A DNA stretch of 27,354 nt from Thermoplasmatales archaeon SW_10_69_26 (GTDB lineage: Archaea; Thermoplasmatota; SW-10-69-26). Positions within the stretch are counted from its first letter, which is position 1. The number at the start of each line of letters is the position of its first letter. The stretch covers positions 1 through 27,354 of the forward strand of contig PXUB01000035.1 in NCBI GenBank assembly GCA_003009755.1. Reading direction: 5' to 3'. Below are positions 8,702 through 27,354 of this stretch, piece by piece. The notes beneath the pieces were generated by a model that did no database searches, was not told the DNA's origin, and saw only the letters and a program-made list of their open reading frames with translations. The position numbers were made by a program, and so were the translations under genes.

Positions 8702-9892
8702 TCAGTCGCCAGTGGGCACGACGACGTCCAGGCCGCGCTCGGTGTCGCCGCTGAACAGGTATCCGTTGTGGTAGCGGGTCTCCCAGTTGTCGCCCACGGG
8801 CAGCGCGTCGTCGAGGATCTCGGGGTTGCGGACGTCGGCGAAGTCGACGAGCACGGAGCCGGCAGCCCGCCAGCCGACGACGATCTTGTCCTGGCCGGGC
8901 AGGATCTCGCCGAAGTGCGCCGTGCAGGGGGCCGGCGGCGTGTTGTCGGCCGGGACCGGCGGTGCCACCCAACTGATCGGGACCGGCGTGGTGGGGTCGG
9001 ACACGTCGTAGAACCAGATCGCGCCCACCGGGTCGCTGGTCGTGCGCTCGAGACCCGGCGTATCCACTCCGGCCAGGCAGCCGGCGGCCGCGTCGGTCGA
9101 GCCGGCGAACTCGTCGCCGATGATCAACGTCTCGCCGTCCTCGGTCACGGTCGCCCAGTGCTGGATCTGCATCGAAGGGTTGTGGATGCGGGAGACGATC
9201 TGGGGGTCGAGGGGATCGGTGATGTCCCAGATCTGCGTCTCAGCGTGGGCCGGGCAATACGCCGTCTCGGCCTCGGGGCCGAAGCTCACGTCGTGGCAGG
9301 CCAGCTGCTCGCGCGTGTCGACGACCTCGGGGTTGGCGGGGTCCGAGACGTCGACGATGTCGACGACCTGGTCGCCGGTGCTGCGGGCGCTGTAAACGAT
9401 GTCCGTGCCGGGGACCTGGCCGACGTTGTGGACGAGGGCGTCGGTGAGGGCCTCGCCCACGATCTCGGGGGTGCGGGGATCGGTGACGTCGGCGAACAGC
9501 ATGCCGTCGCCGTTGGTGGCCAGCACGGCGATCGTGCGGTTGTCCTGAAAGACGAGGTCGACGTCGCGGGTGTACCGGCCGGTGATGTTACCGAGGACCT
9601 GGGGGTCCTCGGGCGTGCTGACGTCGACGACGTGGAACCCGCTGTTCTGGCCGCTGACGTAGGCGTGGTCGCCGTGGAGGTCGAGCCCGGCGCCGGCCTC
9701 GACGTTCTCGACGTGGGCCAGCGGCTCGAGCCCGGTGACGTCCTCGGGCAGCGGGCGGGCCCAGTCCTCGCTGGCGTTGGCCTCGGAGGCGGCGTCGGCG
9801 GCCTCCTCGATCGGCTCCTCGCTCCCGAGGCAGCCGGCGGCGACCAGCGCCAGGCAGGCGAGCCCGATCCAGGCGAGCTGGGACCGATCCAT
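8702..9892 (-). CDS. LVIVD-repeat beta-propeller lipoprotein, copy B
   Basis: Lipobox AAGC; VVDVSTPEDP and IVDVSDPANP repeats; VHN, CHD, QHW, CTAHFG. Confidence 0.85.
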   Translation of the reverse strand: MDRSQLAWIGLACLALVAAGCLGSEEPIEEAADAASEANASEDWARPLPEDVTGLEPLAHVENVEAGAGLDLHGDHAYVSGQNSGFHVVDVSTPEDPQVLGNITGRYTRDVDLVFQDNRTIAVLATNGDGMLFADVTDPRTPEIVGEALTDALVHNVGQVPGTDIVYSARSTGDQVVDIVDVSDPANPEVVDTREQLACHDVSFGPEAETAYCPAHAETQIWDITDPLDPQIVSRIHNPSMQIQHWATVTEDGETLIIGDEFAGSTDAAAGCLAGVDTPGLERTTSDPVGAIWFYDVSDPTTPVPISWVAPPVPADNTPPAPCTAHFGEILPGQDKIVVGWRAAGSVLVDFADVRNPEILDDALPVGDNWETRYHNGYLFSGDTERGLDVVVPTGD

Positions 9893-9894
9893 CG

Positions 9895-11112
9895 CTAGCT
9901 CCCCGTGGGGACGAAGACGTCCATGCCGCGGTCGGTGTCACCGCTGAAGACGTACCCGTTGTGGTAGCGGGTCTCCCAGTTGTCGCCGACCGGGGTCACG
10001 TGGTCGACGAGCTCGGGCGCGGACGGATCGGAGAAGTCGACGACGTAGGTGCCGGCGGCCCGCCATCCGATCACCATCTTGTCCTGGTTGGGGAGGATCT
10101 CGCCGAAGTGCGCCGTGCAGGGCGTCGGCGGGACGTTGTTGGCGGGCAGCTCGGGCGCGACCCATCCGAGCGGGACCGGTTGGCTCTCGTCGCTGATGTC
10201 GTAGAACCAGACGGCCCCGTAGGGATCGGAGACGGTGTGGTCGTCGGTCGGGTTGTCGGCGGTCGCGTAGCAGCCGGCGGCGGCGTCGGTGCTGCCGCCG
10301 AACTCGTCGCCGATCACGAGCAGGTCGCCGCCGTTGGTGACCGTGGCCCAGTGGTGGACGTGCATGAACGGGTTGTAGATGCGGGTGAGTACGTCGGGGT
10401 CCTCGGGATCGGAGATGTCCCAGATCTGGGTTTCGCGGACGCCGGCGCAGTAGGCGCGGTCGTCCTCCGCGGAGAACGTGATGTCGTGGCAGGTGAGGTC
10501 GTTGAACGTCGCCACGTGCTCGGGGTCGTCCGGGTTGGAGGCGTTCACGATGTCGACGCCGGGCGTGTCCACCGACCGCGAGTTGTAGACGAGGTCCGTG
10601 CCGGGCACGACGTTGGCGTTGTGGACGTTGCCCTCGCCGCCGCCGAGCGCCTCGCCGACGACCTCGGGCTGGGTGGGCTCGGTCACGTCGATGAACACCA
10701 TCCCGCCTCCACTGGCGGCGGTGACGACGACGCTTCGGTTCCCGTCGTGGAGCATCTCGACGTCGCGCGTGAACTGGTCCTTGATCTCGCCGACGACCTC
10801 CGGCTCGTTCGGTGTGGTCAGGTCGACCACGTAGAACCCCGTGTTCTGGCCGCTGACGTAGGCGTAGTCGCCTTCGGTCCAGAGACCGCCGGCCGCTTCG
10901 ACGTCCTCGACCTGGGTCAGGTGCTCGATGCCGGTGACGTCGTCCGGCAACGGGCGGGCCCAGTCCTCGGCCTCGTCGGCGGCTTCGCTGTCGGGCGTGC
11001 TGGCGGTCTCGGCGCTTTGCCCTGCGTCACCGATGCAGCCGGCCAGGACGGGTGTGGTCAGCAGCAGAGCGAGCGCGATCGCGACCCCCGGAGCCGTGGG
11101 CTTGCCTCCCAT
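9895..11112 (-). CDS. LVIVD-repeat beta-propeller lipoprotein, copy C
   Basis: ATG at 11112 (MGGKPT...LAGC) with CTTTA about 30 nt upstream; same repeats and His motifs; stop codon 2 nt from the copy B start. Confidence 0.85.
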   Translation of the reverse strand: MGGKPTAPGVAIALALLLTTPVLAGCIGDAGQSAETASTPDSEAADEAEDWARPLPDDVTGIEHLTQVEDVEAAGGLWTEGDYAYVSGQNTGFYVVDLTTPNEPEVVGEIKDQFTRDVEMLHDGNRSVVVTAASGGGMVFIDVTEPTQPEVVGEALGGGEGNVHNANVVPGTDLVYNSRSVDTPGVDIVNASNPDDPEHVATFNDLTCHDITFSAEDDRAYCAGVRETQIWDISDPEDPDVLTRIYNPFMHVHHWATVTNGGDLLVIGDEFGGSTDAAAGCYATADNPTDDHTVSDPYGAVWFYDISDESQPVPLGWVAPELPANNVPPTPCTAHFGEILPNQDKMVIGWRAAGTYVVDFSDPSAPELVDHVTPVGDNWETRYHNGYVFSGDTDRGMDVFVPTGS

Positions 11113-11169
11113 GGTAGCGGGGAGCCGGCCTCGCAGGACTAAAGGTTTGTGGGGGACGCGGCGGGCGTG

Positions 11170-11270
11170 GAGGGCACAGAGGGGGTAGAGGACGCAGAGA
11201 GCCACCCACAGAGACACAGAGGACACGGAGAACACACAGAGAGGAAGGAAGGGCGATGGGAGGGGAAGAG
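11170..11270. repeat. Left arm of the ~100-bp inverted repeat around the GxxExxY gene (CACAGAG/CACGGAG 8-9-mer units)
   Basis: gagggcacagag...ccacagagacacagaggacacggagaacacacagagaggaagga...gaggggaagag aligns with the reverse complement of 11931-12031. Confidence 0.85.
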
Positions 11271-11290
11271 GGAGGTAGTTGGGGGAGAGA

Positions 11291-11871
11291 TCAACGGGCC
11301 AGTCGATGGAGGCCCTCGACCAGCGTCTGGCGGTGGAAGTTGACGATGAGACCGAGGGGGAACTCTCCCTTGCTGAGGTAGGTGAGCAGCTGGGCTCGAT
11401 GGACCGGTTGGACCTCGCTGACGGCTTTGATCTCGACGACGACCCGCCCCCCGACAAGCAGGTCGAGCCGGTAGGAGGCTGACAGCTGTTCGCCTCGATA
11501 GCGCAAGGGCGGGGTTCTGTAGCTGTCTCAGCCAGACGGAGTCTATTTGATCTCCAAGGCCTCTAGCGGCTATATCCGGCCCCTTCATCGCTTCAGCCGT
11601 CACGATCGCTTCGAGCGACAAAAGTCCGTGGTGGAGGGCCTTGTTGTCGCTAGTTCCTCTCCCAACTGAGACACGTTTAGAACCTCGGCGCAAGGGTAGG
11701 TGGACCTGGGACCGGCAGCCGATTCCCTCGTCGGTCGAGCTCCGCCGAGAGCGCCTCCTCGCAGGCGCGCTCGAGGAGCCCAGGCCCGAGGCGGTCGTGG
11801 ACCTCGACCGCTGCACCGATGACGTCGTCAGTGACCTCGCTGAGTTTCGCGGGCGGCTCCTCATCCACCAC
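11291..11871 (-). pseudogene. GxxExxY protein (predicted PD-(D/E)xK nuclease), disrupted
   Basis: N-half VIGAAVEVHDRLGPGLLERACEEAL; C-half YRLDLLVGGRVVVEIKAV...HRAQLLTYL...GLIVNF. One extra base in the C run at 11725-11727 and an insertion at 11510-11687; removing both restores ...GIGCRSQVHLPLRYRGEQL... Confidence 0.9.
11510..11687. mobile_element. 178-bp MITE (non-autonomous insertion)
   Basis: Perfect 9-bp direct repeat GCGCAAGGG at 11501-11509 and 11688-11696; 22-bp terminal inverted repeats matching at 17/22 (11510-11531 vs 11666-11687); lower GC than the flanks. Confidence 0.9.
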
Positions 11872-11930
11872 CGACGAGTTGCCCCTCCAGCTCTTGAAGG
11901 CTCTCCGGGAGCTCTACGCGCTCCCGTATG

Positions 11931-12031
11931 CTCTCCCCTCGATTGCCCCCTCCTTCCCTCTGTGCATTCTCTGTGCTCTCTGTGCCTCTGTGGTTGGCTT
12001 CTCTGTGCCCTCCGCGAGGCTCCGTGCCCTC
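11931..12031. repeat. Right arm of the ~100-bp inverted repeat around the GxxExxY gene
   Basis: ctctcccctc...tccttccctctgtgcattctctgtgctctctgtgcctctgtggttggcttctctgtgccctcc...ctccgtgccctc; inverted counterpart of 11170-11270. Confidence 0.85.
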
Positions 12032-13232
12032 ACAACCCACTGATGGGCGTCGGGATGAACGTGATCACGATCAACAGCAGCGTCGCGATGGCGAGGATGC
12101 TGCGTTTCTTGTCCAACGGCGTGACGCTGTTGAGCGTCGGCGGGTGCTTGGCGCCGATGAACAGGATCAAGATCGCGAACACGAGCCAGCCGCCGTACCC
12201 GGTGATCCACTGGTCGGGCGAGAACGGCGGGATGCCGAGCCCGAGCAGGATGAGGCCGCCGAGGGCGACGTAGGACAGCGTGCGGGCGTGCTCGTCGAGG
12301 AGCGCGCTGGCGACGTGGCCGCCGTCGAGCTGGCCGCTGGGGATCAGGTTGATGCCGGTGACGAGCAGACCGACCCAGCCGGCCATCGCCACGGGGTGGA
12401 TGATCGCGTCCCCGGGGATGGCGAAGGGCCAGGCCAGCGCGTCGTACAGCAACGGCGTACCGAGCATGACGGTACCGCCGGCGCCGGCGGTCGTGACGGG
12501 GTCCTGGCTCATCAAGAACCCCCCCAACAGGACGGTCGGGATGGCGACGACGAGCCCAGCGAGGGGTCCGCTGGCGCCGATGTCGAACAAGGCCTTCTTC
12601 GAGGGGATCGGCTCCCGCAACGAGATGAAGGCGCCCAGCGTCCCGATGTTGACGGCGAAGATCGGCGGTAACGGGATGAAGTAGGGGAACGAGGGCGTGA
12701 GGCCGTGCTTGCGGCCGGCGAGGTAGTGGCCGGACTCGTGCACGCCCAGGATGAGCATGAGCGGAAGCGCGAACTGCAGGAGGCCGCCGAGCAGGAAGCT
12801 GGTGCCGGTCAACGGCAGCAGCGCGCTCTGAGCGCCGTAGCACTCGTAGCAGAACCCGGGGTTCTGGTAGCCGAACACGGCGAGCGCACCGGCCAGCGTC
12901 GTCGTGACCCACGTCGCCAGGAACAGCGCCCAGTTCACCCATTCCCGTCGGTCGGGGCTGCGGGGCTGAGGGAAGACATTGAGGATGCGTTCGCCGCCCT
13001 CTTCACGGATCGAGGCGGCGTAGCCGTGGGTCTCGGCTTGCGCGAGCACGGCGTCGAAACGGTCCTCGATCTCGCCTTTCTCCTCGTGTACGAAGTAGGT
13101 GCCGATCGGACGGTCCTCGTGGGCTTCGTAGGGGGAGAAGTGCTCGCGGACGGCGTCCTGGATCTCCTCGGGCACACCCTTGTGCCGGGGGGCGTCGACG
13201 CGATCCTGGAGCCATTCGGGGGGAGTGGCCAC
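12030..13232 (-). CDS. Site-2 protease (M50 intramembrane metalloprotease)
   Basis: HESGH zinc motif, FDIGASGPLAG, NLIPSGQLDGGH; GTG start inferred from CTTTTCA about 26-30 nt upstream. Confidence 0.92.
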   Translation of the reverse strand: MATPPEWLQDRVDAPRHKGVPEEIQDAVREHFSPYEAHEDRPIGTYFVHEEKGEIEDRFDAVLAQAETHGYAASIREEGGERILNVFPQPRSPDRREWVNWALFLATWVTTTLAGALAVFGYQNPGFCYECYGAQSALLPLTGTSFLLGGLLQFALPLMLILGVHESGHYLAGRKHGLTPSFPYFIPLPPIFAVNIGTLGAFISLREPIPSKKALFDIGASGPLAGLVVAIPTVLLGGFLMSQDPVTTAGAGGTVMLGTPLLYDALAWPFAIPGDAIIHPVAMAGWVGLLVTGINLIPSGQLDGGHVASALLDEHARTLSYVALGGLILLGLGIPPFSPDQWITGYGGWLVFAILILFIGAKHPPTLNSVTPLDKKRSILAIATLLLIVITFIPTPISGL

Positions 13233-21119: not shown

Positions 21120-21718
21120 TCGGGTTCCTCGGCCGCCACGGGGCTGGGCTCGGGGGTCTCCGGGCCACCGTTCGTCCCGCCGGCCGTCTGCTCCAGCTCG
21201 GAGGGTTCCGGCGCCGGCCGGTGCTTCAACCGCTCCTCGCCCAACCACACCGCCATGAGCCGCGTCGATCGGTCGGGGAACGGCAACGGCGAGGCGCGCT
21301 CGACCCAGTCCCCGATCACCGATCCCACCGACGTCGATCGCCCCGGCACGAAGCTGACGGTGTGGAACCCGCGAGACCGAGCCAGCGCCAGCCCTTCCTC
21401 GTTGTCCAGATGGACGCCCAGCATCCCGATCCGGTTGCCGTGAAGGGCGATCTCGGCCAGCCCGGCATCCATCACGCGGCCGCCCAGGCCGCGACCGCGA
21501 GCCTCGGGTTCGACCCACAGGCCCCCGAAGACGCCGGTCCGCGCCGCCATGTCCCGCACCCAGCACGTCCCGACCGGCTCGCCGTCCCGCCGGGCCACGA
21601 TGAACTGCTTGGTCTCCCGATCGGCTAGGGGGCGCGTCAGGTGGGGGTGGTCGGGCACCAGCGACTCGATCAGCTCGTCGTCGCTGGTCCGGTGCACCTC
21701 GATCGTGTCCTCACCCAT
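21113..21718 (-). CDS. GNAT-family N-acetyltransferase
   Basis: LWVEPEARGRGLG acetyl-CoA motif A; LGVHLDN...SRGF motif B. Confidence 0.85.
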   Translation of the reverse strand: MGEDTIEVHRTSDDELIESLVPDHPHLTRPLADRETKQFIVARRDGEPVGTCWVRDMAARTGVFGGLWVEPEARGRGLGGRVMDAGLAEIALHGNRIGMLGVHLDNEEGLALARSRGFHTVSFVPGRSTSVGSVIGDWVERASPLPFPDRSTRLMAVWLGEERLKHRPAPEPSELEQTAGGTNGGPETPEPSPVAAEEPDQ

Positions 21719-21803
21719 CGGCCTGCCCCGCCATCGGGTTCGTCGTTCAAGAGTCCACGGGCAAGCTCAGCCCGCGCTGTAAGGATAAGAAACGGGGGGG
21801 GAC

Positions 21804-21918
21804 CACCAAGTACGCGAAGGGACGCCAGGGCACAAAGGGGAGCAGCTGCCGTGACAACGCCGCCCGGCGGCGAGTCACAGGCCCTTCGTGGCCTTGGCGA
21901 TCCTTCGTGTCCTTCGCG
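21804..21918. repeat. Inverted pair of CACGAAGG-type 9-mer arrays forming a long hairpin (REPIN-like)
   Basis: 21804-21839 vs the reverse complement of 21882-21918 match at 28/37 with one gap; the spacer holds an inner gtgac...gtcac stem. Confidence 0.65.
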
Positions 21919-22650
21919 ATGCGAGCGCCCGCCTCCTTCGGTCAACTCGCCCCGATCGCGATCCCCGGCCTCCTGCTCGTCGGCGCGCTCGGGATGCTCG
22001 TCATGGCGACCCCGATCGGCGGCATGATCTTCGGCGGGCCCTGGATCTTCGTGCTGCTCAGCGTGGTCGCCGGCACGCTGCTGGCCGGCTACCTCGTGAC
22101 CGCGCTCGCCCAGGCGTGGGCCGACCGCCGCGCCGGCTGGGCGCTGCCGCCGGCCGCGCACCTGGCCGTCGGCGACCGCGCAATCAGGCTGCCGGCCCGC
22201 GCCGTCGAACGAGCCGGCTTCGTCACCCAACAGGACGAGGTCCGCGTGCCCGCCCACGCTGCCTACGCGCTCGAGCGCTCGCTCGCCGGCGCCTGGGGCG
22301 TGCCCGAGGACCACTGGTCGCGGACCGCGTTCCTGCAGCGGCTGACCGTCGCGCTCGTCCTCTCCGTCGTCGCCGCGGTTGTCTTCCTCGTCGGCGACGC
22401 CCTCGCCGGCGCCGGCATCTCCCGCGGCATGCGCGAGCACGCCGGCACGGTCGTCATCGCCGGCACGCTCACCGGCTGGCTCGTCGCCACCTCCGTCGAA
22501 CGCAGCCGCCAGGAGGCCGCGGTCGACCTGCTGGCCGACGCCCGCGCGATGGTCATGGACCGCGGCGAGCACCGCGAGGTCCGCCGCGTCCTCGACGACA
22601 TCGGCATCGAGCTCGACAGCGGCGAGGCCGCCGTCGGCGTGCCCCCCTGA
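21919..22650 (+). CDS. Hypothetical membrane protein (about 4 TM segments)
   Basis: Two pairs of hydrophobic helices, host-like codon usage; alternative GTG start at 21907. Confidence 0.7.
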   Translation: MRAPASFGQLAPIAIPGLLLVGALGMLVMATPIGGMIFGGPWIFVLLSVVAGTLLAGYLVTALAQAWADRRAGWALPPAAHLAVGDRAIRLPARAVERAGFVTQQDEVRVPAHAAYALERSLAGAWGVPEDHWSRTAFLQRLTVALVLSVVAAVVFLVGDALAGAGISRGMREHAGTVVIAGTLTGWLVATSVERSRQEAAVDLLADARAMVMDRGEHREVRRVLDDIGIELDSGEAAVGVPP

Positions 22651-22712
22651 GCCGCGTTCCTCCCAGGCGTTGGCCCCGAAGGTTCTTCCCAGGTCCCTAG
22701 CGTGGCCCTCCC

Positions 22713-24155
22713 ATGGGAAGCAGGTGGCTGTGGGTCGCCGTGGCATGCCTGGCGCTGTTCGCCGGCTGCCTGGGCACCAGCGAGGACATCGAGAGCGAGT
22801 CGACCGCGGACGAGCCGGACACCGGCACCGGGGTGCCCGAGGTCGTCGGGCACCGAGCCGACCAGCTGACCGAGCCCGACGTCGAGGAGGTGGCCGCGCG
22901 CCTGATCGACACCGGCTACGACGCCTCCGAGCCCGAGATCGGCGTCACCTCGGATGGCGCGATCGTCTCCAACCCCAGCACGGGCGACGAGAGCCTCGTC
23001 ATCAGCGAGGATCACGGCCGCTCCTGGGAGCAGATCGGCTCGACCGTGCACAACCCCAAGGTCAACCTCGACCCCTGGATGCACGTCGATCCCGACACCG
23101 ACCGCATCTTCAACGGGCCCCTGTACGTCGCCTGCAGCCACCTCGCCTGGACCGACGACAACGGCGACTCCTGGATGTCGAACCCGATCGCCGGCTGCGG
23201 CCTCCCCGCCCACGACCACCAGAAGATCACGACCGGTCCCGGAGCCTTCCGCAACACCGCCGACGCCCCCGCCGAGGCCGCCGACGACGCCGACGGCACC
23301 TGGGTCCACACCAGCCGCGACGGCGGGCAGACGTTCACGACGAGCGCCCGCGTCTTCGAGCCCAGCCCGTGCACCAGCGGCATCAACGGCCCCGTCGAGG
23401 TTGGCCCCGAGGGCACCGCCTACCTCGCCAGCCCGACCTGCACCGGCACCGAGATCGCCGTCAGCCACGACAGCGGGTCCTCCTGGGAGAAAACCTGGGA
23501 GACCGACAACGGCATGTACAGCGGCCTCGCCATCGACAGCGACGTCGCCACCGACGAGGAGGGCAACGTCTACCTGTTCAGCCCCGGCGGCGACGGGCGC
23601 ATGCACGTCTCCGTCAGCCAGAACCGCGGCACCTCGTTCACCGACCCGATCGCCGTCAGCCCGCCCGGCGTCAACATGACCGTTCTCCCGCTCGTCGACG
23701 CCAGCGCCGAAGGCCACGTCGCCTTCGCCTACCTCGGCACCACCGACGACGTCTCCCAGTGGGACCGCCCCGAGCCCAGCTACGCTCGCGAGGAGGCCAA
23801 CTGGCACCTGTACCTGACGACGACCGCGGACGCGCTCACCGAGGAGCCCACGTTCACCACGATCCAGCTCACGCCCGACGAGGACCCCGTGCAGCGCGGC
23901 TGCATCTGGCTCAAGGGCGGCGGCAACGAGTGCCGCAACCTGCTGGACTTCAACGGGATGGTGCTCCACGAGGGCCGGCCCTACATCGCCTACACCGACG
24001 GCTGCGACGCCTGCCCCGAGGGCGAGCAATCCACCAACGACCTGCACCGGATCGCCGTGCTCGAGCAGGGCCCCAGCCTCACCGGCGGCGTGCTCGACCC
24101 GCTCGTGGACCTACAGAACGCAAGCGAGGACGAGAGCGCGACGGTCGTGGGCTAG
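22713..24155 (+). CDS. Asp-box (BNR)/sialidase-like beta-propeller lipoprotein
   Basis: Lipobox FAGC; Asp-boxes SEDHGRSW, TDDNGDSW, SRDGGQTF, SHDSGSSW, SQNRGTSF; RNLLDF. Confidence 0.85.
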   Translation: MGSRWLWVAVACLALFAGCLGTSEDIESESTADEPDTGTGVPEVVGHRADQLTEPDVEEVAARLIDTGYDASEPEIGVTSDGAIVSNPSTGDESLVISEDHGRSWEQIGSTVHNPKVNLDPWMHVDPDTDRIFNGPLYVACSHLAWTDDNGDSWMSNPIAGCGLPAHDHQKITTGPGAFRNTADAPAEAADDADGTWVHTSRDGGQTFTTSARVFEPSPCTSGINGPVEVGPEGTAYLASPTCTGTEIAVSHDSGSSWEKTWETDNGMYSGLAIDSDVATDEEGNVYLFSPGGDGRMHVSVSQNRGTSFTDPIAVSPPGVNMTVLPLVDASAEGHVAFAYLGTTDDVSQWDRPEPSYAREEANWHLYLTTTADALTEEPTFTTIQLTPDEDPVQRGCIWLKGGGNECRNLLDFNGMVLHEGRPYIAYTDGCDACPEGEQSTNDLHRIAVLEQGPSLTGGVLDPLVDLQNASEDESATVVG

Positions 24156-27195: not shown

Positions 27196-27259
27196 CGACT
27201 CAGGTATACAGCCCGCGAGGTATGAAGGTGCCGTGACTGTCCCGGCCGTCAAGACCTAG

Positions 27260-27354
27260 ACTGCCGGACGTGTTTTGCTTACGCTCTCGCGCCGGTCTGA
27301 GCGAGGCAAGGTCGCGGAGCCCGAGGAAGGAAACCCCGAAAATTTCCGACCCTC
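27260..27354. mobile_element. End of a second copy of the 18819-19388 element family (runs off the window)
   Basis: CTAG then 27260-27298, which matches the reverse complement of 19350-19388 at 38/39; continues cgcggagcccgaggaagga, similar to cgcggagccgaggcgaagga inside the first copy's left end. Confidence 0.8.

Follow-up and report, generated by a model that had tools for sequence, protein, structure and literature searches.

The contig of Thermoplasmatales archaeon SW_10_69_26 analysed here carries a GxxExxY gene whose two halves are parted by 178 bp of DNA between two copies of a 9-mer, and this locus raises the question of what the insert is, whether it arrived recently and which enzyme could have brought it there. 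The window, meaning the whole 27,354-nt stretch of DNA that was analysed, is contig C35 of a 2.82-Mb assembly in 49 contigs (69% G+C, estimated to be 95% complete). A previous sequence-only reading of the window had described the insert as a MITE that lacks a transposase, is bordered by a perfect 9-bp target-site duplication (TSD) and must be mobilised in trans. The coordinates and counts given for the 9-mer proved exact, with GCGCAAGGG at 11501-11509 and again at 11688-11696, a spacing of 187, and between the two copies lie the 178 bp (11510-11687, plus strand). A scan of 11300-11900 for inverted pairs yielded 36, the longest of which reproduced the 22-nt terminal inverted repeats of the earlier description: the left arm at 11510-11531 (plus strand) and the right arm at 11666-11687 (minus strand) match at 17 of 22 positions and are thus 77% complementary. 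The sole open reading frame within the insert (40 aa) matched no Pfam family at E ≤ 1. We consider it likely that these 178 bp are a non-autonomous MITE derived from, or parasitic on, an insertion sequence (IS) of the IS1595 family, and the evidence for this reading comes from the copies of the element, from its empty sites and from a co-resident IS with similar ends.

The search for further copies in the genome, by BLAST and by profile, returned four full copies besides the one in the window, together with one terminal remnant. The five full copies, 100, 99, 97, 94 and 77% identical to the window copy when this is itself included, and the remnant are distributed over four contigs (C35, C43, C32 and C2). 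They lie at C43:32850-33026 (99%), C32:101586-101763 (97%), C2:48189-48366 on the other strand (94%) and C32:64102-64272 (77%), and all are 177-178 bp long save the last, the oldest, which is 171 bp. The remnant is a solo right end at C43:6529-6555, the 27 nt of which are identical to the right end of the MITE. An nhmmer profile built from the five copies matched exactly these six loci in the genome, extending the remnant to 45 nt at E 0.0016, while the next match had an E of 2.5. All four close copies preserve the terminal inverted repeats, which can still be made out in the 77% copy, and the flanks of the copies are either unrelated to one another or part of other repeats. The recurrence of the 178 bp at four other loci with the same ends is more than chance.

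All five copies are also bordered by a 9-bp direct repeat, which is perfect around the window copy (GCGCAAGGG, 9/9) and the C2 copy (CCCTCGCGG, 9/9) and imperfect around the C43 copy (CCGCAAGGG and CCCCAGGGG, 7/9), the C32:101586 copy (CTCACATCC and CCCACACCC, 7/9) and the oldest copy at C32:64102 (CACCTGCGG and CCCTCGCGG, 6/9). The locus at C43:32841-33035 is peculiar in that its MITE copy is 99% identical to that of the window, yet its target repeats differ at 2 of 9 positions although both flanks belong to one hairpin, and this discrepancy in an otherwise young copy counts against the reading proposed here.

Empty sites were found both within the genome and in related strains. The C32:101586 copy sits just upstream of the start codon of IS-D, an IS1595-family element of 1044 bp, and degenerate IS-D copies on C30 and C25 hold CCCACACCC once at the place where the filled copy has 9-mer, element and 9-mer, so that they constitute paralogous empty sites. 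For the window copy itself, the stretch 11200-12000 is present in public halite-metagenome runs, and we aligned Logan contigs of four such runs (X1 to X4) to 10900-12300. X2, X3 and X4 come from one study (P2), and X1 comes from another (P1) and is probably the sample of origin, hence not independent of the assembly. Contigs from X2, X3 and X4, 95-99% identical to the window, run from 11500 straight into 11688, so that 187 bases are missing, and 9 letters at the join fit both sides. These related-strain contigs thus lack the element and one repeat and are therefore orthologous empty sites. In X1 (share 0.79), the word depth was 38-105 inside the MITE versus 4.5-12 in its flanks, and the contigs break at the borders of the element, their loose ends at 11502 and 11698 being the flanks of the C43 copy. 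The joined, empty form was not seen among the X1 contigs, an absence that carries little weight because such contigs drop rare variants. The proposal of a transposase-free MITE with a 9-bp TSD, mobilised in trans, is accordingly supported by copy number and flanks as well as by paralogous and orthologous empty sites. The findings that would have overturned the earlier reading did not materialise, since the genome has other copies and an IS that shares the type of ends and the 9-bp duplication, and separately assembled contigs contain both the right junction and the precise empty allele.

These data allowed us to weigh two alternatives to a recent insertion. That the insert was produced by misassembly, with a repeat placed in this contig by mistake, is hardly credible: the X1 Logan contigs do break at the MITE borders and, among the pieces listed, which start at 11514, none bridges the left junction, but one X1 contig runs from 11658 through the right junction to 12180 (with the caveat that X1 is perhaps the sample of origin), the target 9-mer stands on both sides as a real insertion needs, four other copies share the structure and the contigs of X2 to X4 show the precise empty allele. 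Somewhat less remote, and still very improbable, is the idea that the filled and empty alleles differ because the other strains lost the element, through precise excision or through recombination between the 9-bp repeats, in which case the insertion in the window strain would not be recent. The empty allele was seen solely in runs from the other study, and contigs give no polarity, which leaves room for such a loss; against it, neither of the two paralogous genes is interrupted at the corresponding position, and the window copy, being 99% identical to another copy and flanked by a perfect TSD, looks as a young insertion is expected to look. Precise excision that restores a single 9-mer is, moreover, rare for DDE elements. 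We infer that the insertion is recent and strain-specific, and that the direction of change was insertion rather than excision. With a clean filled allele and a precise empty allele in different samples, the locus represents a population-verified case of recent transposition in an uncultured halite archaeon.

The gene that received the element, small and nuclease-like, is a GxxExxY/PDDEXK_3 pseudogene at 11291-11871 on the minus strand, both halves of which match PF13366 and TIGR04256. The N-terminal half (11677-11871) aligns to positions 2-39 of PF13366 (E 6e-8) and scores 33.5 bits against TIGR04256, below the cut-off of 35, and the C-terminal half (11291-11506) aligns to positions 51-116 of PF13366 (E 7.8e-18) and scores 69.5 bits. 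No full-length match in a single frame was obtained, the halves lying in different frames and being split by the MITE. The motif that gives the family its name reads GLLERAC in the window gene, with C in place of Y, and its counterparts in the two intact paralogs (C36 and C30) end in ESAY and ERVY. Removal of the MITE and one repeat had been said to restore ...HLPLRYRGEQL, which is true locally but not of the whole frame, as an extra base at 11723 (T run in GATTCCC), 27 nt from the insertion, separates the halves. Comparison with the paralogs places this frameshift between ...ELDRRG and ...QVHLPL, and dropping the MITE, one repeat and base 11723 in silico opens a frame of 130 aa whose alignment to each paralog is gap-free, with 63 of 127 and 60 of 126 residues identical. 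The extra base is absent from the X3 and X4 contigs and present in X2, which lacks the MITE and has, in addition, a 41-nt deletion at 11338-11378. Since X2 is frameshifted but free of the MITE, the simplest order of events is frameshift first and MITE later, and the gene was probably dead before the element arrived. In an annotation, the pair of GxxExxY fragments at 11291-11871 should appear as a single pseudogene that a frameshift and a MITE have disrupted, and not as two small genes.

The neighbourhood of the pseudogene has features of its own. On either side of it stand imperfect inverted repeats, about 100 nt long and composed of CACAGAG-like units (window 11170-11270 and 11931-12031), over which the depth in X1 roughly doubles, and similar CACAGAG-rich inverted flanks, of which 46-48 nt aligned, surround both paralogs (C36 at about 21650-22350 and C30 at about 80150-80800). 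Judging from this arrangement, the CACAGAG unit may be the other putative element within which the sequence-only reading had seen the MITE nested, its mobility being only putative. The X3 contigs end at 11381 and 11379 in mutually inverted loose ends that resemble the arms of a hairpin repeat, which amounts to a different insertion, and together with the other strain lesions it looks as if the gene is either a hot spot or decaying freely. Beside the pseudogene, on the minus strand, lie two adjacent paralogous ORFs (8702-9892, 396 aa, and 9895-11457, up to 520 aa) with signal-peptide-like starts and acidic composition.

A MITE without a transposase depends on an enzyme encoded elsewhere, and the sequence-only reading had advised looking for an autonomous IS with the same ends and 9-bp duplications. 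A search of the genome for both MITE ends, allowing up to 5 mismatches, returned the MITE copies and matches at contig ends, and no other end of this type. C28 terminates in CGAGGGTCTGTAGTTGTGTCAG, followed 58 nt on by an ATG and MTDEMSLTEFYERF, and C36 starts with the reverse complement of the same end. The end of C25 and the start of C22 carry GGAGGGTGTGTAGCTGTCTCAG and an identical 95 nt in which, read inward, a reading frame finishes as ...GFEQALSSLVSAKPVRWEGLVSGVN (last residues ...PVRWEGLVSGVN), its stop codon lying within the repeat. The 9-mers at these junctions pair as perfect duplications, C28 with C25 through CCCAAAGGG (reverse complement on C25) and C36 with C22 through CCCTTCGGG. 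The matching 9-mers at four contig ends therefore define two copies of one IS, which we call IS-X, and their rejoined flanks rebuild copies of a known dispersed repeat. An IS with similar ends and 9-bp duplications is thus present, in two copies with perfect TSDs and an unassembled interior: the assembly covers 122 nt at the left end, 96 nt at the right end and 14 plus 25 residues of the transposase. In addition to its practical use for scaffolding, since C28 and C25, and C36 and C22, are joined pairwise through its copies, IS-X is of interest for the similarity of its ends to those of the MITE. The left end of the MITE agrees with each IS-X end at 18 of 22 positions and the right end at 16 and 15 of 22, and the two elements share an 8-nt inner core in their ends. 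Alignment of the MITE interior with the subterminal DNA of IS-X revealed no convincing similarity, and the MITE is therefore not a simple deletion derivative of IS-X.

What remains visible of the IS-X transposase points to the IS1595 family, whose members carry a zinc ribbon and a DDE_Tnp_IS1595 domain and usually make 8-bp TSDs, as described in PMC8101967. The DDE_Tnp_IS1595 domain corresponds to PF12762, and the zinc ribbon, PF12760, is expected of members outside the IS1016 group. The 25-residue tail of IS-X matched no Pfam family alone, and it resembles a transposase fragment at the start of C10 (10/18, E 1e-6) that scores 28.8 bits against PF12762 (cut-off 27); by eye, the 14-residue head resembles the N-termini of two further elements of this genome, IS-D and IS-E. 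The family as outlined in PMC8101967 has a single DDE transposase with an N-terminal zinc ribbon, and both short pieces of IS-X resemble IS1595 transposases of the same genome. IS-D, which is positive for PF12762 and PF12760, has three copies (C30:47801-48844, C32 at about 101530-102760 and C25 at about 22100-23130), all with frameshifts or stops; its left end, the end used for the comparison, matches the left and right MITE ends at 14 of 22 positions each, inner core included. IS-E has two copies (C47:43620-44640 and C32:49229-50240) with 8-bp duplications and one intact transposase of 333 aa that passes PF12762, PF12760 and NF033547 (170.6 bits). A third element, IS-F, is seen at contig ends only (C10:1-290, the end of C36 and the end of C17), with left subterminal DNA similar to that found in IS-X. 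Because of the IS-X ends, the 9-bp stagger and the likeness of the transposase head and tail, we propose IS1595, via IS-X, as the family of the MITE, with the qualification that 39 residues do not prove the family or the intactness of the IS-X transposase; this transposase is presumably intact and the enzyme that moves the MITE. The stagger departs from the family norm: where PMC8101967 gives 8 bp as usual, the MITE and both IS-X copies make 9 bp, and their terminal bases are CG.../GG... with no uniform GG. Merlin elements, the eukaryotic kin of IS1595, are credited in the same source with duplications of 8 or 9 bp.

The MITE and IS-X also have their choice of target in common. Insertions at hairpin tips within one repeat superfamily account for 3 of the 5 MITE copies and both IS-X copies. 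The C2, C32:64102 and C43 copies sit in the terminal loop of a hairpin formed by a dispersed repeat of about 170-190 nt, and both IS-X copies sit in the loop of a related hairpin repeat. We aligned 13 further copies of the hairpin repeat, the stems of which covary; copies lie, among others, at C1:63105-63289, C3:54003-54189, C3:35283-35467, C19:72769-72919, C25:90418-90577, C38:41298-41455, C7:44084-44229 and C14:34348-34473. The repeats are dispersed and variable between strains. Rfam gave no match at E ≤ 0.1 for 11 loci with hairpin repeats or IS junctions or for the MITE region of the window. The assembly contains no gene matching PF07282 (TnpB/Cas12f-type), and the hairpin repeats are therefore not explained as IS200/605-type guide-RNA ends within it.

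For the target sequence we compared eight 9-mers, from the five MITE copies, the remnant and the two IS-X copies. The pattern SCSNNNSGS fits 7 of the 8 and CCSNNNSGG fits 6 of the 8, compared with 1.8% and 0.4% of genomic 9-mers, figures that are descriptive only, as the patterns were chosen after the sites had been seen and five of the sites are related sequences and not independent. The GxxExxY site has no hairpin of that family and shares the same TA-flanked type of 9-mer, a resemblance best explained by chance. A protein-level 'PLRY' likeness of the C2, C32:64102 and C43 flanks to the GxxExxY site was rejected, as it comes from the shared target 9-mer and TA, and the flanks are non-coding hairpin repeat. 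The MITE and IS-X might be served by an IS1595-type transposase that selects the tips of hairpin loops and cuts with a symmetric 9-bp stagger around CCC-N3-GGG, a suggestion that we put forward tentatively and rate at somewhat less than an even chance. The observed insertions show that the abundant hairpin repeats of the genome serve as landing pads for DDE elements.

The assignment to IS-X and the hairpin context call for two other explanations to be considered. The element could be a genuine MITE whose partner is not IS-X and perhaps not an IS1595-family element, the enzyme coming from an IS that has been lost, was not assembled or resides on another replicon, and the likeness of the ends being family-level or convergent. 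The missing interior similarity, ends that agree at 18 of 22 positions and are not identical, a transposase seen as 39 residues only and an assembly that is 95% complete and broken by repeats into 49 contigs all speak for this reading. It nevertheless has to account for three independent traits that the MITE shares with IS-X, namely the build of the ends around an 8-nt inner core, a stagger of 9 bp, which is unusual, and targets at hairpin tips, in a genome that yielded no other end of the type at up to 5 mismatches, and we judge it unlikely. Much less probable still is that the 178 bp are a hairpin or REP-like repeat module of the genome, spread by a non-DDE route or by recombination, that is a MITE in looks only. 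Dispersed hairpin modules are indeed abundant in the genome and vary from strain to strain, and a different, hairpin-type insert occupies 11379-11381 of the same gene in X3. The element itself, however, is no hairpin apart from its 22-nt ends: in a DNA fold it paired only there, with a z-score of -1.6, and 12 of 200 shuffled sequences folded equally well. Its 9-bp duplications, ends that match those of a transposase-bearing IS and the absence of PF07282 from the assembly count against such a module as well. An IS1595-type MITE with IS-X as its partner is the reading that we retain.

The unit is gene-less, with conserved ends, a fixed 9-bp stagger and precise empty alleles, and it shares its genome with an IS of like ends, stagger and targets. 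In the mechanism that we propose on this footing, a DDE transposase of IS1595 type, encoded by IS-X or a close relative and acting in trans, would bind both 22-nt terminal inverted repeats and either cut the element out or copy it, a chemistry that is itself conjectural. The element would then be inserted at a staggered cut whose two strand breaks lie 9 bases apart around a palindrome-like 9-mer of CCC-N3-GGG type, such 9-mers being presumed to occur mostly at the tips of the dispersed hairpin repeat, and repair of the stagger would leave the 9-bp duplication. The likeliest source of the enzyme would be IS-X, the two-copy IS whose ends lie at four contig ends.

Comparison with known systems shows that the element is an ordinary MITE; MITEs, IS1595-derived MITEs of halophiles and palindrome-targeting ISs are all already known. 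The closest precedent is the MITE of ISHwa6, an IS1595-family element of Haloquadratum walsbyi, which is given in Table 4 of Kamoun et al. 2013 (PMC3852290) as 165 bp long, in 7 copies, with 25-nt inverted repeats and 8-bp direct repeats. Going by that table, both are gene-less elements of salt-loving archaea and of similar dimensions (165 versus 178 bp, 7 versus 5 copies and inverted repeats of 25 versus 22 nt), and both are assigned to an IS1595-family partner through their ends (PMC3852290). The two differ in their direct repeats, which are 8 bp there and 9 bp here, a comparison made by description and not between sequences (PMC3852290), and a preference for hairpin tips, as seen here, is not reported in the ISHwa6 MITE table (PMC3852290). 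What the present element adds is a probable family and partner, a marked preference for hairpin-loop 9-mers common to MITE and partner, and direct population evidence of recent insertion.

If the selectivity for hairpin tips is real, it would give archaea a DDE-type equivalent of the bacterial transposases that recognise REPs. The bacterial REP-targeting ISs considered here belong mostly to the IS110 and IS3 families. ISPa11, ISPpu9, ISPpu10, ISPsy8, ISRm22 and ISRm19 are named as examples by Tobes and Pareja 2006 (PMC1525189), in which extragenic palindromes appear as insertion hot spots. As far as that account goes, the elements described here are alike in inserting into dispersed extragenic palindromes and unlike in being of IS1595 type, in residing in an archaeon and in cutting symmetrically, with breaks 9 bp apart, about the hairpin loop (PMC1525189). 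In a limited literature search, targeting of hairpin tips was described neither for IS1595-type elements nor for archaea.

Outside this genome, neither the relatives nor the sequence collections searched provided comparative support from other lineages. A search of 60 related genomes, including five members of the same family at 72-89% completeness, did not find the MITE. The left end of IS-X, the one end used as a query, had a single 22-nt match in this set, inside an RtcB-like ORF of genome G004, which we attribute to chance. We likewise discounted two loci that fit a degenerate pattern of the 22-nt ends among GTDB species genomes, one within an ORF of 799 aa in a Flavobacteriia MAG and the other in a Caldilineaceae MAG, with no transposase nearby. 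The 22-nt end pattern had 0 loci in JGI metagenome contigs, and an interior 20-mer had 26 there, of which 23 matched the MITE profile (E ≤ 1) over the seeded 20-29 nt only and 3 did not match it at all, again a chance result. These scans may not have covered records of the genome to which the window belongs.

Hairpin repeats also figure at the end of the window itself. Positions 27258-27354 consist of a hairpin-repeat arm that gives way, at the hairpin tip, to 17 nt from the start of another multi-copy element. The last 50 nt of the window recur at the ends of C15 and C11, and C45 starts inside the multi-copy element. From this pattern it follows that a second type of element lands at hairpin tips and breaks the assembly there.
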